A stretch of DNA of 64,000 nucleotides from Escherichia coli. GTDB lineage: Bacteria > Pseudomonadota > Gammaproteobacteria > Enterobacterales > Enterobacteriaceae. The notes under the pieces are model-generated. The model searched no databases. It was not told where the DNA came from and saw only the letters and a program-made list of their open reading frames with translations. Where the stretch lies: assembly GCF_003334385.1 (NCBI RefSeq), contig NZ_QOWN01000011.1, one strand, 5' to 3'. Of this stretch, positions 13,179 to 39,726 are shown one piece after another (the first letter of the stretch is position 1; every line of letters begins with the position of its first letter). The translations under genes were made by a program, and so were the position numbers.

Positions 13179-14729
13179 GTGAGAACACGACATCTGGTCG
13201 GCCTTATTTCGGGAGTACTGATTCTTTCAGTATTGCTGCCTGTCGGCTTAAGCATCTGGCTGGCCCATCAGCAGGTAGAAACATCGTTTATTGAAGAGCT
13301 GGATACCTATTCCTCCCGCGTCGCTATTCGAGCCAATAAGGTGGCGACACAAGGGAAAGATGCGCTGCAGGAGCTGGAAAGATGGCAAGGCGCTGCCTGT
13401 AGCGAAGCCCATCTCATGGAAATGCGTCGGGTATCTTACAGTTATCGCTATATTCAGGAAGTGGCTTATATCGATAACAACGTTCCCCAGTGTTCGTCTC
13501 TGGAGCATGAAAGTCCGCCCGATACCTTCCCCGAGCCAGGTAAAATTTCGAAAGATGGTTATCGTGTCTGGTTAACATCGCATAACGATTTAGGCATTAT
13601 CCGTTACATGGTCGCCATGGGAACGGCACATTATGTCGTCATGATCGACCCCGCTTCCTTTATTGATGTCATTCCCTATAGCTCATGGCAAATTGATGCC
13701 GCCATTATTGGCAATGCCCATAACGTTGTCATAACCAGCAGCGATGAAATTGCTCAGGGAATTATTACCAGGCTACAAAAAACACCCGGTGAGCATATCG
13801 AAAATAATGGAATCATTTACGATATCCTGCCCTTACCGGAGATGAATATTTCGATCATCACATGGGCTTCAACGAAAATGTTGCAGAAAGGCTGGCATCG
13901 GCAAGTCTTTATTTGGTTACCGCTCGGGTTGGTGATTGGCCTGCTGGCAGCGATGTTTGTGCTGCGTATTTTGCGCCGTATTCAGTCACCGCATCATCGG
14001 CTGCAGGATGCTATCGAAAATCGTGATATTTGCGTGCACTATCAGCCGATTGTCTCCTTAGCCAATGGCAAAATTGTCGGTGCTGAGGCACTGGCGCGCT
14101 GGCCGCAGACAGACGGTAGTTGGTTGTCACCAGATAGTTTTATTCCGCTGGCACAGCAAACGGGCCTTTCTGAGCCATTGACGCTACTGATTATAAGAAG
14201 CGTCTTTGAAGATATGGGCGACTGGCTGCGTCAGCATCCACAGCAGCATATTTCGATCAATCTTGAATCCCCCGTGCTCACCTCGGAAAAAATCCCGCAA
14301 TTGCTGCGTGACATGATCAATCACTATCAGGTTAATCCCAGACAGATCGCGCTTGAACTCACTGAACGCGAGTTTGCCGATCCGAAAACCAGCGCCCCGA
14401 TAATTTCTCGCTACCGGGAGGCGGGCCATGAAATTTATCTTGATGATTTTGGTACGGGGTATTCAAGTTTAAGTTATTTACAGGATCTGGATGTCGACAT
14501 TCTGAAGCTCGATAAATCTTTCGTTGATGCGCTGGAATATAAAAATGTCACGCCGCATATCATCGAAATGGCAAAAACACTGAAACTGAAAATGGTAGCG
14601 GAGGGAATCGAAACCAGTAAACAAGAAGAGTGGTTACGCCAGCATGGCGTGCACTACGGTCAGGGCTGGCTCTACAGCAAGGCATTACCGAAAGAAGATT
14701 TCTTACGCTGGGCCGAGCAACATTTGTGA
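13179..14729 (+). CDS. pdeB: cyclic-di-GMP phosphodiesterase PdeB (YlaB), CSS-domain plus EAL domain
   Basis: EAL-domain C-terminus (DDFGTGYSSLSYL, KLDKSFV); start placed at GTG 13179 (516 aa, good spacing from AAGGA), though ATG at 13173 is an alternative. Confidence 0.85.
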   Translation: MRTRHLVGLISGVLILSVLLPVGLSIWLAHQQVETSFIEELDTYSSRVAIRANKVATQGKDALQELERWQGAACSEAHLMEMRRVSYSYRYIQEVAYIDNNVPQCSSLEHESPPDTFPEPGKISKDGYRVWLTSHNDLGIIRYMVAMGTAHYVVMIDPASFIDVIPYSSWQIDAAIIGNAHNVVITSSDEIAQGIITRLQKTPGEHIENNGIIYDILPLPEMNISIITWASTKMLQKGWHRQVFIWLPLGLVIGLLAAMFVLRILRRIQSPHHRLQDAIENRDICVHYQPIVSLANGKIVGAEALARWPQTDGSWLSPDSFIPLAQQTGLSEPLTLLIIRSVFEDMGDWLRQHPQQHISINLESPVLTSEKIPQLLRDMINHYQVNPRQIALELTEREFADPKTSAPIISRYREAGHEIYLDDFGTGYSSLSYLQDLDVDILKLDKSFVDALEYKNVTPHIIEMAKTLKLKMVAEGIETSKQEEWLRQHGVHYGQGWLYSKALPKEDFLRWAEQHL

Positions 14730-14770
14730 ATTTTTGGGCTGACGGCACGCCGCACAGCCCGTCACGCTAC

Positions 14771-15124
14771 CTATTCGTCGATGATTGACTCGAATCCGCC
14801 ATAGATCATTCGCTTGCCGTCAAACGGCATGGACTCGCCGAACTCTTTCATCCGTGGGTCCGACATCATCTTTTGATTAGCAGCGTCGCGGACCTCTTTT
14901 GAAGGGTATTCAATCCAGCTAAAGACAACCTCTTCATTCTCTTCCGCTTTCACCGCCATACGAAAATCGGTCACTTTGCCATCCGGTACATCGCTGGCCC
15001 AGCATTCGACAATACGAAGCGCGCCAAACTCTTTAAACAATGGCGCAGCCTTAGCGGCCATTTCCCGATAGGCATCCTTTTTATCGGCAGGAACGGCAAC
15101 CACAAAACCATCAACATACTTCAT
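14771..15124 (-). CDS. ybaA: DUF1428 family protein YbaA
   Basis: 117-aa ORF MKYVDGFVVAVPADKKDAYREMAAKAAPLFKEFGALR...; matches E. coli YbaA. Confidence 0.92.
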   Translation of the reverse strand: MKYVDGFVVAVPADKKDAYREMAAKAAPLFKEFGALRIVECWASDVPDGKVTDFRMAVKAEENEEVVFSWIEYPSKEVRDAANQKMMSDPRMKEFGESMPFDGKRMIYGGFESIIDE

Positions 15125-15234
15125 CAGACATACCTCCGAAGCGTACTGCGCAGCCAGACAATTCTTGCGACGTCAGTTGTGGTTAAAGTTTAGCCATGTT
15201 GGGATTTTTTGACGAAACGGTGGGAGGCAGAAAT

Positions 15235-15348
15235 GGGTGGGGGCCCTGCCAGCTACATCCCGGCACACGCGTCATCTGCCTTGGCTGCTTCCTTCCGGAC
15301 CTGACCTGGTAAACAGAGTAGCGTTGCGGGAGAACCAACAGAGCCCCC
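15235..15348 (-). ncRNA. ffs: 4.5S RNA, the RNA component of the signal recognition particle
   Basis: Reverse complement of 15235-15348 reads GGGGGCUCUGUUGGUUCUCCCGCAACGCUACUCUGUUUACCAGGUCAGGUCCGGAAGGAAGCAGCCAAGGCAGAUGACGCGUGUGCCGGGAUGUAGCUGGCAGGGCCCCCACCC (114 nt), identical to E. coli 4.5S RNA as I recall it. Confidence 0.93.
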
Positions 15349-15424
15349 ATTGAGAGCGTTGAGAACCAACGCGCAGGCGCATTATCACTGCTGCCCCGGC
15401 TAATTGCAACCCATCGCGTGCCAG

Positions 15425-15814
15425 ATGCTGGTTTCTTGCGCAATGCGACTTCACTCGGGCGTTTTTCCAGATTATGCTGAAAAATTACCTCAGGAAGAAA
15501 AGATGGAAAAAGAAGATTCATTTCCCCAACGCGTCTGGCAAATCGTCGCCGCTATTCCCGAAGGCTATGTCACCACTTACGGTGATGTGGCGAAACTGGC
15601 GGGATCGCCCCGCGCCGCGCGCCAGGTGGGCGGTGTGTTAAAGCGTCTCCCTGAAGGCAGCACCTTACCCTGGCACCGGGTGGTTAATCGCCACGGCACA
15701 ATTTCGCTAACCGGACCGGATTTACAGCGTCAGCGACAGGCATTACTGGCAGAAGGTGTGATGGTATCGGGAAGCGGGCAAATCGACTTGCAGCGTTATC
15801 GCTGGAACTACTAA
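15425..15814 (+). CDS. atl: alkyltransferase-like DNA-damage sensor Atl (YbaZ)
   Basis: 129 aa from ATG at 15425; contains PWHRV where true O6-alkylguanine transferases have PCHRV. Confidence 0.9.
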   Translation: MLVSCAMRLHSGVFPDYAEKLPQEEKMEKEDSFPQRVWQIVAAIPEGYVTTYGDVAKLAGSPRAARQVGGVLKRLPEGSTLPWHRVVNRHGTISLTGPDLQRQRQALLAEGVMVSGSGQIDLQRYRWNY

Positions 15815-15844
15815 CCCTCTCCGGGCGGAGAGGGTTAACGTCGC

Positions 15845-16417
15845 TTAATATTGCGTAGGAGCTGGAACTGCCGAAGACGGATTCACCTGAGTTGGTGAAG
15901 TCGAAGGTACGGTAGTCGTTGCGCCACCGCTGGCCTGAACCGGCACGGCGGTTTGCTGTACCGGCACCAATGTCAGGTCGGCTTTAGTTCCGCCCTGGTT
16001 GATCACCGGCTGAACGGTATCGGTGATAAATACCAGTTTGTCATTCACGGTAATCGCCGCACTCAACAGAATACGCGCGTTCGGCTGAACATCTGCCGGG
16101 TTAAATGGCAGAACAAAGCTGAATGGTGACTGTTTACCTTCAGTACGCACCGCTTTCTGCGCCAGCACTTTTGACGGTGCATCGGCTAACGACGCGTCAG
16201 AAAGTGTCACGGTCAGCACAGCATCAGGCGGCAGTGCGACTTTCTGACGGATCCAGACGGTACCGGAGACATTCGGTTGCTGGATAGCTGGTTGTTGTGT
16301 TGCTGAAATAGACGTATTTGCAGCCGGTGCTGGCGTCTGAATATCCGCGCTTTTATCTGCGCAAGCCGCCAACGCAATCGCAACCGCTAAACCACTGGCC
16401 ATGTGCACGAGTTTCAT
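15845..16417 (-). CDS. ybaY: outer-membrane lipoprotein YbaY
   Basis: 190-aa ORF MKLVHMASGLAVAIALAAC (lipobox) ...; matches E. coli YbaY. Confidence 0.92.
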   Translation of the reverse strand: MKLVHMASGLAVAIALAACADKSADIQTPAPAANTSISATQQPAIQQPNVSGTVWIRQKVALPPDAVLTVTLSDASLADAPSKVLAQKAVRTEGKQSPFSFVLPFNPADVQPNARILLSAAITVNDKLVFITDTVQPVINQGGTKADLTLVPVQQTAVPVQASGGATTTVPSTSPTQVNPSSAVPAPTQY

Positions 16418-30553: not shown

Positions 30554-32908
30554 CTATTTTGCAGTCACAACCTGCATACCAGACGGTTCATTTTGCAGCG
30601 CCAGAGTCAGAACTTCCTCAATGCGCTTCACAGGATGAATGTCCAGATCGGCAATTACGTTGTCAGGAATCTCTTCCAGATCGCGTTTATTTTCGAACGG
30701 AATTAGCACTGTTTTAATCCCGCCGCGATGCGCTGCCAGGAGTTTTTCTTTCAAACCACCGATCGGCAGTACCTGACCACGCAGAGTGATCTCACCGGTC
30801 ATTGCCACATCGGCACGAACCGGGTTACCGGTCAGGCAAGAAACCAGCGCGGTGCACATAGCAATACCGGCACTCGGACCATCTTTCGGCGTCGCACCTT
30901 CCGGTACGTGGACGTGGATGTCACGTTTTTCGTAAAAATCAGGGTTGATCCCCAGTTTTTCCGCACGCGCACGAACCACCGTTAACGCCGCCTGAATGGA
31001 CTCCTGCATCACTTCGCCGAGCGAACCGGTATAGGTCAGTTTGCCTTTACCCGGAACACATGCGGTTTCAATGGTCAGCAAGTCACCGCCCACTTCCGTC
31101 CACGCCAGACCGGTTACCTGACCGACACGGTTTTCGTTATCCGCGCGACCATAGTCGAAACGCTGAACACCGAGATAGTCATGCAGGTTATCGCCGTTAA
31201 TTTCGATATGTTTTAATGACTTATCGAGCAGTAACTGCTTAACCGCTTTGCGACACAGTTTGGAGATTTCACGCTCCAGACCACGCACGCCCGCCTCACG
31301 GGTGTAGTAACGAATAATGCCGATAATGGCGCTATCGTCGACGGTCAGCTCACCTTTTTTCAGTGCATTACGTTCAATCTGCTTCGGCAGCAGGTGACGT
31401 TTGGCGATGTTCAGTTTTTCATCTTCGGTATAACCGGAGAGGCGAATCACTTCCATACGATCCAGCAGCGGTGCCGGAATGTTCATGGAGTTCGACGTCG
31501 CGACAAACATCACGTCGCTGAGATCGTAATCCACTTCCAGGTAGTGGTCGCTGAACGCTACGTTCTGCTCTGGATCCAGCACTTCAAGCAGTGCAGAGGC
31601 CGGATCGCCACGCATGTCAGAAGACATTTTGTCGATCTCATCGAGCAGGAACAGCGGGTTTTTCACGCCCACTTTCGCCATTTTCTGGATCAGTTTACCC
31701 GGCATAGAACCGATGTAAGTACGGCGGTGACCACGGATTTCCGCTTCATCACGCACGCCGCCCAGCGCCATACGGACATATTTACGCCCGGTGGCTTTGG
31801 CAATGGACTGACCAAGAGAGGTTTTACCTACCCCCGGCGGCCCTACCAGGCAGAGGATCGGTCCCTTGATTTTGTTGACACGGCTTTGAACCGCAAGATA
31901 CTCAAGGATTCGATCTTTCACGCGCTCCAGACCATAATGGTCGGTATCAAGGATTTCCTGCGCCTGACGCAGGTCTTTTTTGACCTTGCTACGCGCATTC
32001 CACGGCACCTGTACCATCCAGTCGATATAACCACGCACTACGGTCGCTTCTGCCGACATCGGAGACATCATTTTCAGCTTCTGCAACTCTGCTTCCGCTT
32101 TCTCTTTTGCCTCTTTCGGCATCTTCGCCGCGTCGATTTTGCGCTTCAGGGCTTCGTTTTCGTCCGGCGCGTCGTCCATTTCACCGAGTTCTTTCTGAAT
32201 AGCTTTCATTTGCTCGTTCAGATAGTACTCACGCTGGGATTTCTCCATCTGCTTTTTAACGCGGTTGCGAATGCGTTTCTCAACCTGCAGCAGATCGATT
32301 TCCGATTCCATCATTGCCATCAGATATTCCAGACGTTCGTTAACGTCGGACATCTCCAGAACAGACTGTTTGTCAGCCAGTTTCAGCGGCATATGTGCAG
32401 CAATGGTATCCGCCAGACGCGCCGGATCGTCGATGCTATTCAGCGACGTCAGCACTTCTGGTGGGATTTTTTTGTTCAGCTTGATGTAGCCTTCGAACTG
32501 GCTGATTGCAGTACGCACCAGCACTTCCTGTTCCCGCTCATCAATGGTCGGCGACTCCAGATACTCCGCCTTCGCAGAAAAGTGTTCGCCATTGTCAGAG
32601 AGCGCAGAAATACGCGCGCGCTGTAACCCCTCGACCAGCACTTTGACGGTGCCGTCAGGCAGTTTCAGCATCTGCAATATAGAGGCCACGGTCCCGACGG
32701 TGAAAAGATCGTTTACACCCGGCTCATCCGTTGAAGCTTCTTTCTGCGCGACCAGCATAATTTTTTTATCATGGTCCATCGCCGCTTCCAGACAACGGAT
32801 AGATTTTTCCCGCCCGACAAATAAGGGGATGACCATGTGCGGATAAACCACCACATCGCGCAGCGGCAATACGGGGATTTCAATGCGTTCAGAACGCTCA
32901 GGATTCAT
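30554..32908 (-). CDS. lon: ATP-dependent Lon protease
   Basis: 784 aa from ATG at 32906-32908 ([38 protein letters not shown]...); Walker [10 protein letters not shown]; the 799-aa track ORF has a 15-codon extension that I rejected. Confidence 0.96.
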
Positions 32909-32990
32909 AGAGCTCTCTCTTAGTTTAATTTCCGCCAGGTAATCAGATGACACGACTGTGCTTCACGCCATCTATTAACATGTACGTCAG

Positions 32991-33018
32991 TATATGGGGA
33001 TGTTTCCCCCACATTCAA
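32991..33018 (-). promoter_or_regulatory. sigma32-type heat-shock promoter of lon
   Basis: Minus strand reads TTGAAT-13nt-CCCCATAT, matching the sigma32 consensus (CTTGAA ... CCCCATNT), about 80 nt upstream of the lon ATG. Confidence 0.65.
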
Positions 33019-33095
33019 CGCCGAGAATAGAGGAAAAATTAAAGGGGAGATAAAATCCCCCCTTTTTGGTTAACTAATTGTATGGGAATGGTTAA

Positions 33096-34370
33096 TTATT
33101 CACCAGATGCCTGTTGCGCTTCCGGCTTGCCATAAATCAGCAACGGTTTGCTTTGACCATCAATTACCGACTCGTCGATAACCACTTTTTCGACGTCTTC
33201 CATGGACGGCAGATCGTACATGGTATCGAGCAGTGCGGCTTCTACGATGGAACGCAGGCCACGGGCACCGGTTTTACGCGCCATCGCTTTCTTAGCGATA
33301 GCATCCAGCGCCTCGTCACGGAATTCCAGATCCACGCCTTCCAGATTAAACAGCGCCTGATACTGCTTGGTCAGGGCGTTTTTCGGCTCTTTGAGGATCT
33401 GAATCAGAGCTTCTTCGCTCAGTTCATTCAACGTTGCGACAACCGGCAGACGACCAATAAACTCAGGGATAAGACCAAACTTGATCAGATCTTCCGGTTC
33501 AACCTGCGCCAGCAGCTCGCCTTCGCTTGCTTTGTCGGACTTCGCTTTTACCGTCGCGCCAAAACCAATGCCGGAGCCGGTTTCTACACGGTGGGAAATC
33601 ACTTTATCCAGACCGGCAAACGCACCGCCACAAATAAACAGGATCTTAGAGGTATCAACCTGCAAGAATTCCTGCTGCGGATGTTTACGCCCACCTTGCG
33701 GTGGAACAGCAGCTACCGTACCTTCGATCAGTTTCAACAGTGCCTGCTGTACGCCTTCACCGGAAACGTCTCGGGTAATGGACGGGTTGTCTGACTTACG
33801 AGAAATCTTGTCGATTTCATCGATGTAGACAATACCACGCTGTGCTTTCTGGACATCGTAGTCGCATTTCTGCAACAGCTTCTGAATGATGTTTTCAACG
33901 TCTTCACCCACATAACCGGCTTCGGTCAGTGTAGTCGCGTCGGCCATGGTGAACGGAACATCCAGCAGGCGCGCCAGCGTTTCAGCCAGCAGCGTTTTAC
34001 CGGAACCGGTCGGACCGATCAGCAGAATGTTACTTTTGCCCAACTCGACGCCATTGCTGGTATCGCCGTTGCGCAGACGTTTGTAATGGTTGTATACCGC
34101 GACCGCCAGCACTTTTTTCGCCTGTTCCTGGCCGATAACGTAATCGTCCAGGTGGTTGCGAATTTCATGCGGCGTCGGTAGCGCACTGCGTTCACGATGC
34201 GGTGCAACTTCTTTAATCTCTTCGCGAATGATGTCGTTACATAAATCAACACATTCGTCGCAGATATACACGGATGGACCGGCAATCAGCTTGCGCACTT
34301 CATGCTGGCTTTTGCCGCAAAAAGAGCAATACAGCAATTTGCCTGAGCCATCTTTGCGTTTATCTGTCAT
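33096..34370 (-). CDS. clpX: ATP-dependent Clp protease ATP-binding subunit ClpX
   Basis: 424-aa [47 protein letters not shown] (zinc-binding domain) ...; Walker A GPTGSGKT. Confidence 0.97.
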
Positions 34371-38250: not shown

Positions 38251-39726
38251 ATGTCCAGTCAATATTTACGTATTTTTCAACAGCCGCGTTCAGCCATATT
38301 GCTGATCCTGGGTTTTGCTTCCGGGCTACCGCTCGCCCTGACATCCGGTACCTTACAGGCCTGGATGACGGTCGAGAATATTGATCTCAAAACCATTGGT
38401 TTCTTCTCTCTGGTAGGCCAGGCTTACGTTTTTAAATTCCTCTGGTCACCGCTGATGGACCGCTACACGCCTCCATTTTTTGGGCGGCGACGCGGTTGGC
38501 TGCTCGCCACGCAAATCCTGTTATTAGTCGCCATTGCGGCGATGGGTTTTCTCGAACCAGGCACCCAACTCCGCTGGATGGCGGCGCTGGCGGTGGTGAT
38601 CGCTTTTTGCTCTGCCTCCCAGGATATTGTCTTCGATGCGTGGAAAACCGATGTGCTCCCGGCAGAAGAACGTGGTGCGGGCGCGGCAATCAGCGTTCTG
38701 GGTTACCGTTTAGGGATGCTGGTTTCCGGCGGCCTAGCCCTGTGGCTGGCAGATAAATGGCTGGGCTGGCAGGGCATGTACTGGTTGATGGCGGCGCTGT
38801 TGATCCCCTGTATTATCGCGACGTTGCTTGCACCAGAACCGACCGACACCATTCCTGTGCCAAAAACGCTGGAACAAGCGGTTGTTGCACCTCTGCGAGA
38901 TTTCTTTGGTCGCAATAATGCCTGGCTTATTTTGCTTCTTATCGTGCTGTATAAGCTGGGCGACGCATTCGCCATGAGCCTGACAACCACGTTTTTGATT
39001 CGCGGCGTCGGGTTTGATGCGGGTGAAGTAGGCGTGGTTAACAAAACGCTTGGCTTACTAGCGACCATTGTTGGCGCATTGTACGGTGGGATTTTGATGC
39101 AGCGCCTGTCACTGTTCCGGGCACTGCTGATTTTCGGCATTTTACAAGGTGCGTCTAACGCCGGTTACTGGCTGCTGTCGATTACTGATAAGCATCTCTA
39201 CAGCATGGGCGCAGCCGTCTTTTTCGAAAACCTCTGTGGCGGGATGGGCACATCAGCCTTTGTCGCGCTGTTAATGACGCTATGTAATAAGTCATTTTCC
39301 GCTACTCAATTTGCCCTGCTCTCAGCGCTTTCTGCTGTAGGGCGAGTTTATGTCGGCCCCGTGGCGGGTTGGTTTGTTGAAGCACACGGCTGGTCGACAT
39401 TCTATCTATTCTCCGTCGCCGCTGCCGTACCAGGGCTTATTTTGCTGCTGGTTTGCCGCCAGACGCTTGAATATACACGAGTAAATGACAACTTTATCTC
39501 CCGTACCGCATATCCGGCAGGTTATGCCTTTGCCATGTGGACACTGGCGGCGGGCGTCAGCCTGTTGGCCGTGTGGTTACTGCTATTGACGATGGACGCG
39601 CTGGATTTGACGCACTTCTCTTTCCTGCCTGCTCTGCTGGAAGTCGGGGTTTTAGTCGCCCTTTCTGGCGTCGTGCTTGGTGGTTTGCTGGATTATCTGG
39701 CGCTACGAAAAACGCATCTGACGTAA
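38251..39726 (+). CDS. ampG: muropeptide (anhydromuropeptide) permease AmpG, MFS
   Basis: 491-aa ORF MSSQYLRIFQQPRSAILLILGFASGLPLALTSGTLQAWMTVENIDLKTIGFF...; matches E. coli AmpG. Confidence 0.95.
   Translation: MSSQYLRIFQQPRSAILLILGFASGLPLALTSGTLQAWMTVENIDLKTIGFFSLVGQAYVFKFLWSPLMDRYTPPFFGRRRGWLLATQILLLVAIAAMGFLEPGTQLRWMAALAVVIAFCSASQDIVFDAWKTDVLPAEERGAGAAISVLGYRLGMLVSGGLALWLADKWLGWQGMYWLMAALLIPCIIATLLAPEPTDTIPVPKTLEQAVVAPLRDFFGRNNAWLILLLIVLYKLGDAFAMSLTTTFLIRGVGFDAGEVGVVNKTLGLLATIVGALYGGILMQRLSLFRALLIFGILQGASNAGYWLLSITDKHLYSMGAAVFFENLCGGMGTSAFVALLMTLCNKSFSATQFALLSALSAVGRVYVGPVAGWFVEAHGWSTFYLFSVAAAVPGLILLLVCRQTLEYTRVNDNFISRTAYPAGYAFAMWTLAAGVSLLAVWLLLLTMDALDLTHFSFLPALLEVGVLVALSGVVLGGLLDYLALRKTHLT

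Follow-up and report, generated by a model that had tools for sequence, protein, structure and literature searches.

The 4.5S RNA of Escherichia coli, encoded by ffs, is a textbook essential RNA (it is essential in K-12). Together with the protein Ffh, which binds near the tetraloop end of the RNA, it makes up the bacterial signal recognition particle (SRP), and this particle captures hydrophobic signal sequences at the ribosomal exit (PMC9099147, PMC5454536, PMC6059433). The tetraloop is the first docking point of FtsY (PMC6059433, PMC5454536); after this, the NG dimer of Ffh and FtsY moves to a distal site on the RNA, which activates GTP hydrolysis (PMC5454536, PMC9099147), and the nascent chain is passed to SecYEG (PMC9099147, PMC5454536, PMC6059433). 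The K-12 RNA, to which the RNA described here is identical, is a discrete and stable molecule that binds Ffh and supports co-translational targeting (PMC9099147, PMC5454536, PMC5499578), and its mature length is 114 nt (PMC9099147). As to its maturation, RNase P generates the 5' end and RNases T and PH trim the 3' end (PMC7049720, PMC1935012), the product at which RNase T stops being a "4-nt 3'-overhang of ACCC" (PMC3439924). RNA-Seq has placed the 5' ends of ffs transcripts "primarily at -26", with minor ends at about -127 and about -153, in a study that included a size marker for the classical 24-nt leader (PMC5499578).

Here we describe the ffs locus in a window of E. coli DNA, by which we mean the whole stretch of 64,000 nt that was analysed. 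An earlier note had claimed that the reverse complement of positions 15235-15348 is the 114-nt SRP RNA, and that a 112-aa open reading frame (ORF) lying over it on the same strand is spurious. The features it described are all present in the sequence, exact to the base. We consider it practically certain that 15235-15348, on the minus strand, is ffs, the 4.5S RNA of the SRP, and that the overlying ORF is a chance frame without coding function.

Results

A complete ffs gene in its usual surroundings

Read on the minus strand, positions 15235-15348 give a sequence of 114 nt that begins with GGGGGCUCUG and ends with GGCCCCCACCC, and which in full is GGGGGCUCUGUUGGUUCUCCCGCAACGCUACUCUGUUUACCAGGUCAGGUCCGGAAGGAAGCAGCCAAGGCAGAUGACGCGUGUGCCGGGAUGUAGCUGGCAGGGCCCCCACCC. 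The features of the RNA are as follows.

15235-15348, minus strand: mature 4.5S (SRP) RNA, gene ffs; 114 nt, read directly, one hairpin
15244-15340, minus strand: match to Rfam family RF00169, coinciding with the RefSeq SRP_RNA feature; 97 nt, model positions 1-97 of 97
15282-15306, minus strand: domain IV core, RNA positions 43-67, holding the symmetric-loop nucleotides and the tetraloop
15293-15296, minus strand: GGAA tetraloop, RNA positions 53-56; a loop in both the minimum free energy (MFE) and the RNAalifold structures
15261-15266, minus strand: GUGCCG in the distal part of the hairpin, RNA positions 83-88; invariant in 13 of 13 aligned sequences
15235-15238, minus strand: 3' overhang ACCC, the last four bases, unpaired in the fold

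A scan of the whole window with Rfam 15 at gathering thresholds gave two matches in total, and the covariance-model search with the bacterial small SRP family, which had been suggested as a check, was positive: Bacteria_small_SRP (RF00169) matches 15244-15340 on the minus strand at 68.1 bits (E = 5.5e-13; gathering score 40), untruncated over the full model. Within Rfam clan CL00003 it is the small-type model that wins the competition, and the RNA has the properties of this type (about 100-115 nt, no Alu domain), with 114 nt between the RNase P site and the ACCC end. It agrees exactly with the Rfam consensus GGUCAGGxCCGGAAGGxAGCAGCC. A permissive Rfam scan of 15000-15700 on both strands returned RF00169 alone and no other RNA family. 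The motif that had been quoted for the conserved GGAA tetraloop region, CAGGTCCGGAAGGAAGCAG, is indeed present, occurring once in the window (15285-15303, minus strand) with GGAA closing the hairpin, and it was matched in none of 100 dinucleotide-preserving shuffles, even with up to two mismatches permitted.

The 1.2-kb region around ffs recurs with 100% identity in many E. coli chromosomes, that of K-12 MG1655 among them, and is matched in 5425 of 5426 complete E. coli genomes. Over the same set the 114-nt gene occurs in exactly one place per genome in 5425 of 5426 (minimum, median and maximum all 1), with at least 99% identity in 5421 genomes, and the gene order ybaA-ffs-MGMT gene-ybaY is conserved in 5358. 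Transferred to window coordinates, the K-12 RefSeq record has ybaA at 14771-15124 (minus strand), the SRP_RNA feature ffs at 15244-15340 (minus strand), an MGMT-family gene at 15503-15814 (plus strand) and ybaY at 15845-16417 (minus strand), with no CDS annotated over ffs; the label at the locus is "ffs: signal recognition particle sRNA small type". The earlier description of the gene as "hidden" under an ORF is misplaced in its emphasis, as the present RefSeq annotation already calls ffs rightly. This feature is shorter than the mature RNA by 8 nt at the 5' end and by 9 nt at the 3' end, and the coordinates of the earlier note are the ends of the mature RNA as known from the literature. A comparison of the first 50 kb of the window with the K-12 record gives 22 differences in 50,000 positions, all outside ffs; the source strain is therefore a close relative of K-12, and not necessarily K-12 itself.

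A few genomes in the complete set depart from this uniformity. E. coli EC77 (NZ_CP196708.1, 401-517) carries an ffs of 117 nt, lengthened by a 3-nt duplication (CTC) that follows RNA position ~29-32, in an internal-loop region; it is among only four genomes with ffs below 99% identity, and represents either a true allele or an assembly error. Two ffs copies are found in records that bear the label of a plasmid, and a single genome of the 5426 classed as "complete" lacks any match to ffs, an oddity where the gene is essential. The likely causes are replicons with the wrong label, or an assembly that is incomplete or misassigned.

Fold, covariation and conservation of the RNA

The MFE structure of the 114-nt RNA is a single hairpin of -57 kcal/mol, with a z-score of -3.15 against shuffles, which is modest taken alone, given the high G+C content of the sequence. 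The centroid structure is the same as the MFE structure, with GGAA as the apical loop and internal loops on both sides of it, so that folding into the conserved domain IV helix, on which the earlier claim had been staked, is what we find. The RNA reads ACCA at 39-42, AGG at 47-49 and GCAG at 61-64, and these bases are unpaired in both the MFE and the RNAalifold folds; we take the numbering of the symmetric loop (A47-G49 / G61-G64) and of the asymmetric loop (A39-A42) to be that of the structures of the Ffh M domain with 4.5S RNA. The domain IV core at 15282-15306 is the region bound by the Ffh M domain, and the GUGCCG bases at 83-88 are, we assume, the distal site for the Ffh-FtsY NG dimer.

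We aligned 12 gammaproteobacterial homologues to the 114 nt without gaps, at 71-98% identity: Citrobacter, Lelliottia, two Providencia, Pseudoalteromonas, two Pseudomonas, Arsukibacterium, Rheinheimera and three Marinomonas. For the 13 sequences together, RNAalifold gave 39 consensus pairs (compensatory changes in 16) and a covariation contribution of -7.6 kcal/mol, in the same architecture as the MFE fold (a single hairpin with GGAA at its apex). For the MFE structure of the window RNA, standard pairs persist in 95.8% of helix cells, against 37-53% after displacement of the 3' partners by 1-3 columns, a comparison that is inflated by the derivation of the tested structure from the window sequence. 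The compensatory-change counts and the independent RNAalifold consensus are free of this bias: 17 of 42 pairs, or 66 cells, have changes on both sides, which was reached by 0 of 500 shuffles. The full-length covariance-model match, the identity to K-12 ffs and this compensatory covariation in the helix together uphold the claim that the locus is an RNA gene.

An exact scan for the 25-nt core GGTCAGGTCCGGAAGGAAGCAGCCA, with one genome per species, returned at least 120 loci. The matches listed include Proteobacteria, Actinobacteria (Collinsella), Firmicutes, Chloroflexi and Planctomycetes, amongst them Bacillus and Paenibacillus, Erysipelotrichaceae, Dehalococcoidia/Tepidiforma and Planctomycetales, and such a depth of conservation fits a universal RNA. 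The invariance of RNA positions 43-67 in our alignment is circular, as the relatives were picked by an exact match to this core; the compensatory changes in the outer helix are unaffected by this caveat or by that concerning the origin of the structure. GUGCCG at 83-88 is invariant in all 13 sequences though it formed no part of the selection criterion, and its constancy is in keeping with a functional distal region.

Promoter, leader and ends

Two further features precede the RNA.

15381-15409, minus strand: sigma-70-type promoter TTGCAA-17 nt-GATAAT; 9 of 12 consensus matches
15349-15374, minus strand: 5' leader of the precursor, placed by RNA-Seq 5' ends; removed by RNase P

The promoter is the sole promoter-like site in 14700-15900, and its -10 hexamer ends 7 nt ahead of 15374, the position of the published -26 end. 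When E. coli, Citrobacter, Lelliottia and the two Providencia are aligned, the invariant blocks are the TTGC of the -35, the ATAATG of the -10, a TCAAT before +1 and the RNA, and similarity collapses right after ...CACCCA; this pattern is the footprint of a promoter and an RNA, and not of a 339-nt coding region. In a fold of 15125-15372 the leader is predicted to form a 6-bp hairpin, GCGUUG-GUUCU-CAACGC. At the other end of the gene, the published ACCC overhang coincides exactly with the unpaired tail at 15238-15235. Neither a terminator scan nor the same fold, which has weak structures only, revealed a canonical intrinsic terminator 3' of ffs, so that the sequence offers no explanation of how the primary 3' end forms. 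One terminator-like match, at 15357-15343 on the minus strand, was rejected: it lies inside the leader and the 5' end of the RNA, and one such match was found where 1.4 are expected by chance.

On the same strand, ybaA starts (15124) 110 nt downstream of the 3' end of the 4.5S RNA, and 15125-15234 holds no recognisable intrinsic terminator. In E. coli O121 201805972 and in VL7S7, ybaA (DUF1428) is split by IS1A. Upstream of the -35 of ffs, at about 15426-15446 on the minus strand, lies a block TTG(C/T)G(C/T)AA(G/T)AAA(C/A)CAGCA, which is kept in E. coli, Citrobacter, Lelliottia and both Providencia in a spacer that is otherwise not conserved. It stands about 52-72 nt upstream of the -26 start, and could be an UP-element, an activator site or part of the minor upstream starts (PMC5499578).

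The ORFs over ffs

Two ORFs lie over the gene.

15183-15521, minus strand: 112-aa ORF; ATG start; spans the promoter, the leader and the whole RNA, and covers the first 19 nt of the MGMT-family gene on the opposite strand
15272-15454, minus strand: a second chance ORF of 60 aa; GTG start; covers the 5' two-thirds of the RNA

Could the longer ORF be a genuine protein-coding gene, or the locus a dual-function one that yields both an RNA and a small protein? We hold this to be highly improbable. In its favour, the frame described by the earlier note is present in the mechanical ORF list, with 112 open codons and an ATG start, and its product has been deposited as a "hypothetical protein" from four E. 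coli or Shigella genomes in GenBank: AFG39350.1 (E. coli P12b) is the exact 112-aa translation of 15186-15521 on the minus strand, and the same 90%-identity cluster holds the near-identical CAR01799.1 (S88), ANK05803.1 (O25b:H4) and ESU77918.1 (Shigella dysenteriae WRSd3), also of 112 aa. The RNA segment of the frame is open in Citrobacter and Lelliottia too; however, this is to be expected of the two closest relatives, whose RNA is 96-98% identical, and beyond them it is open in one Pseudomonas only, with in-frame stops within the RNA segment in 9 of 12 relatives. Upstream of the RNA, Citrobacter has no ATG at the equivalent position, whereas Lelliottia and that Pseudomonas have stops. Variable columns are spread 18/19/19 over codon positions 1/2/3, without third-position bias, and the observed substitutions are instead paired across the helix.

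The composition of the frame argues against coding as well. On a log-odds scale of codon usage, for which the window's 44 annotated genes served as the training set and were themselves scored by leave-one-out, the ORF scores -0.167 bits/codon, below all 44 of them (+0.081 to +0.642), and the 60-aa ORF scores -0.176 bits/codon; G+C by codon position is a flat 0.55/0.50/0.51, against 0.59/0.39/0.59 in genes. The 112-aa product has no Pfam family even at E <= 10 and no NCBIfam family at E <= 1, a weak negative in the latter case, as the genuine neighbour ybaA is likewise without one, and the product of the 60-aa ORF is absent from the protein collection searched. RefSeq/PGAP does not annotate the 112-aa ORF. 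Its ATG, at -173, is upstream of every reported 5' end of ffs (PMC5499578) and is preceded only by a directly adjoining GGGGAA. The sole other in-frame Met codon falls at the RNase P cleavage site. One might still imagine that translation of rare long precursors yields a small protein encoded by part of the 112-aa frame, but such a dual function is very unlikely, since the frame is broken in most relatives, its codon usage is non-coding, its ATG lies upstream of all 5' ends and its only other Met codon sits where RNase P cuts. To judge by its sequence, the 112-aa ORF looks non-coding; with the product on deposit as a hypothetical protein and the ORF failing the coding tests, the prediction that any protein call here would be an annotation artefact has come true.

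The other conceivable reading retains the RNA and denies that it works: the locus would be a pseudogene, or a duplicated fragment at a mobile-element or phage att site, with the working gene elsewhere. Phage integration into ffs has been described in Enterococcus (PMC12540744), and IS1 insertions do occur nearby, in ybaA, in some strains. Against this, we have seen that the RF00169 match runs the full length of its model and that no second locus accompanies the single copy in 5425 complete genomes; the synteny from ybaA to ybaY is conserved and the promoter is both intact and conserved, and the annotation of the window shows no mobile-element genes in the vicinity. We reject a pseudogene or att-site remnant on the full-length match, the single copy and the conserved synteny, and regard it as vanishingly improbable. 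The reading we retain is that of a single functional ffs overlain by a chance frame.

Fragments of the ORF are also on record under other names. Those filed under Staphylococcus aureus (MDG6737645.1, from a 551-bp contig) and Klebsiella pneumoniae (WP_238933333.1, from a 373-bp contig) are most likely contaminating E. coli DNA. In a 217-aa ENA "protein" the ORF follows an unrelated N-terminus, a fusion suggestive of a chimeric metagenome contig; this N-terminus, in our estimation, resembles an aminoacyl-tRNA synthetase.

Other observations in the window

A full-model match to sraA (RF02029), with 106.7 bits against a gathering score of 56, lies at 32980-33075 (+). It falls between lon (30554-32908) and clpX (33096-34370), on the strand that neither of them uses, and the K-12 RefSeq record consulted has no annotation for it. 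For the MGMT-family gene (atl/ybaZ), which ends at 15814 on the plus strand, the start is ambiguous: the longest ORF opens with a TTG at 15404 (136 aa), the RefSeq gene with an ATG at 15503 (103 aa). In the long form, similarity to methyltransferase families begins only at residue 31-39, and longer forms would overlap the promoter region of ffs on the opposite strand. Finally, of the 22 differences from K-12 MG1655 over 50 kb, 11 are clustered within 480 bp of ampG (38382-38862). This looks like a small recombination patch, and the cluster shows that the window does not come from K-12 MG1655 itself.

Discussion

What is established here is the identity of the sequence, its family membership, its fold and covariation, the match to a promoter and the fact that the ORF is non-coding in character; the processing steps and targeting mechanism are those of the literature on the identical K-12 sequence. 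Put together, they would give the following course of events. Transcription from the sigma-70 promoter (15409-15381) would start at about 15374, RNase P would cut off a leader of ~24-26 nt to leave the 5' end at 15348, and 3' exonucleases, mainly RNase T, would trim the transcript to its ACCC overhang, ending at 15235. The resulting 114-nt RNA would fold into one long hairpin, the tip of which (domain IV, with its two internal loops and GGAA) would bind the M domain of Ffh and recruit the receptor FtsY. The GTPase dimer of Ffh and FtsY would then move to the distal part of the hairpin, leading to GTP hydrolysis and to the handing over of the ribosome-nascent chain complex to SecYEG.

For the biology of the SRP this adds nothing new: the identity of ffs was already known, RefSeq already places it here, and nothing at the locus is novel. 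Its interest is rather one of annotation hygiene, as a documented case in which a 112-aa ORF on a structured, G+C-rich RNA gene was called as a protein, the product of which persists as a "hypothetical protein" in several GenBank and UniRef entries. These spurious entries are database records and do not represent a biological family, and the call has been dropped from present RefSeq. The locus could be used as a positive control in pipelines where RNA genes are masked ahead of ORF calling.

The closest known system is ffs of E. coli K-12 itself. The gene in the window is identical to it over the 114 nt and the 1.2-kb surroundings, and its neighbours, promoter geometry and mature ends agree with published accounts (PMC5499578, PMC3439924, PMC9099147). 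A more distant functional homologue is the scRNA of Bacillus subtilis, a large SRP RNA of about 271 nt with an Alu domain (PMC1935012). The domain IV core is common to the two types, and the exact 25-mer recurs in Bacillus and Paenibacillus loci. Unlike the scRNA, the RNA in the window is of the short type, a single hairpin without the Alu domain, and it is processed by RNase P and RNase T, whereas the scRNA of B. subtilis undergoes cleavage of the RNase III type (PMC1935012).
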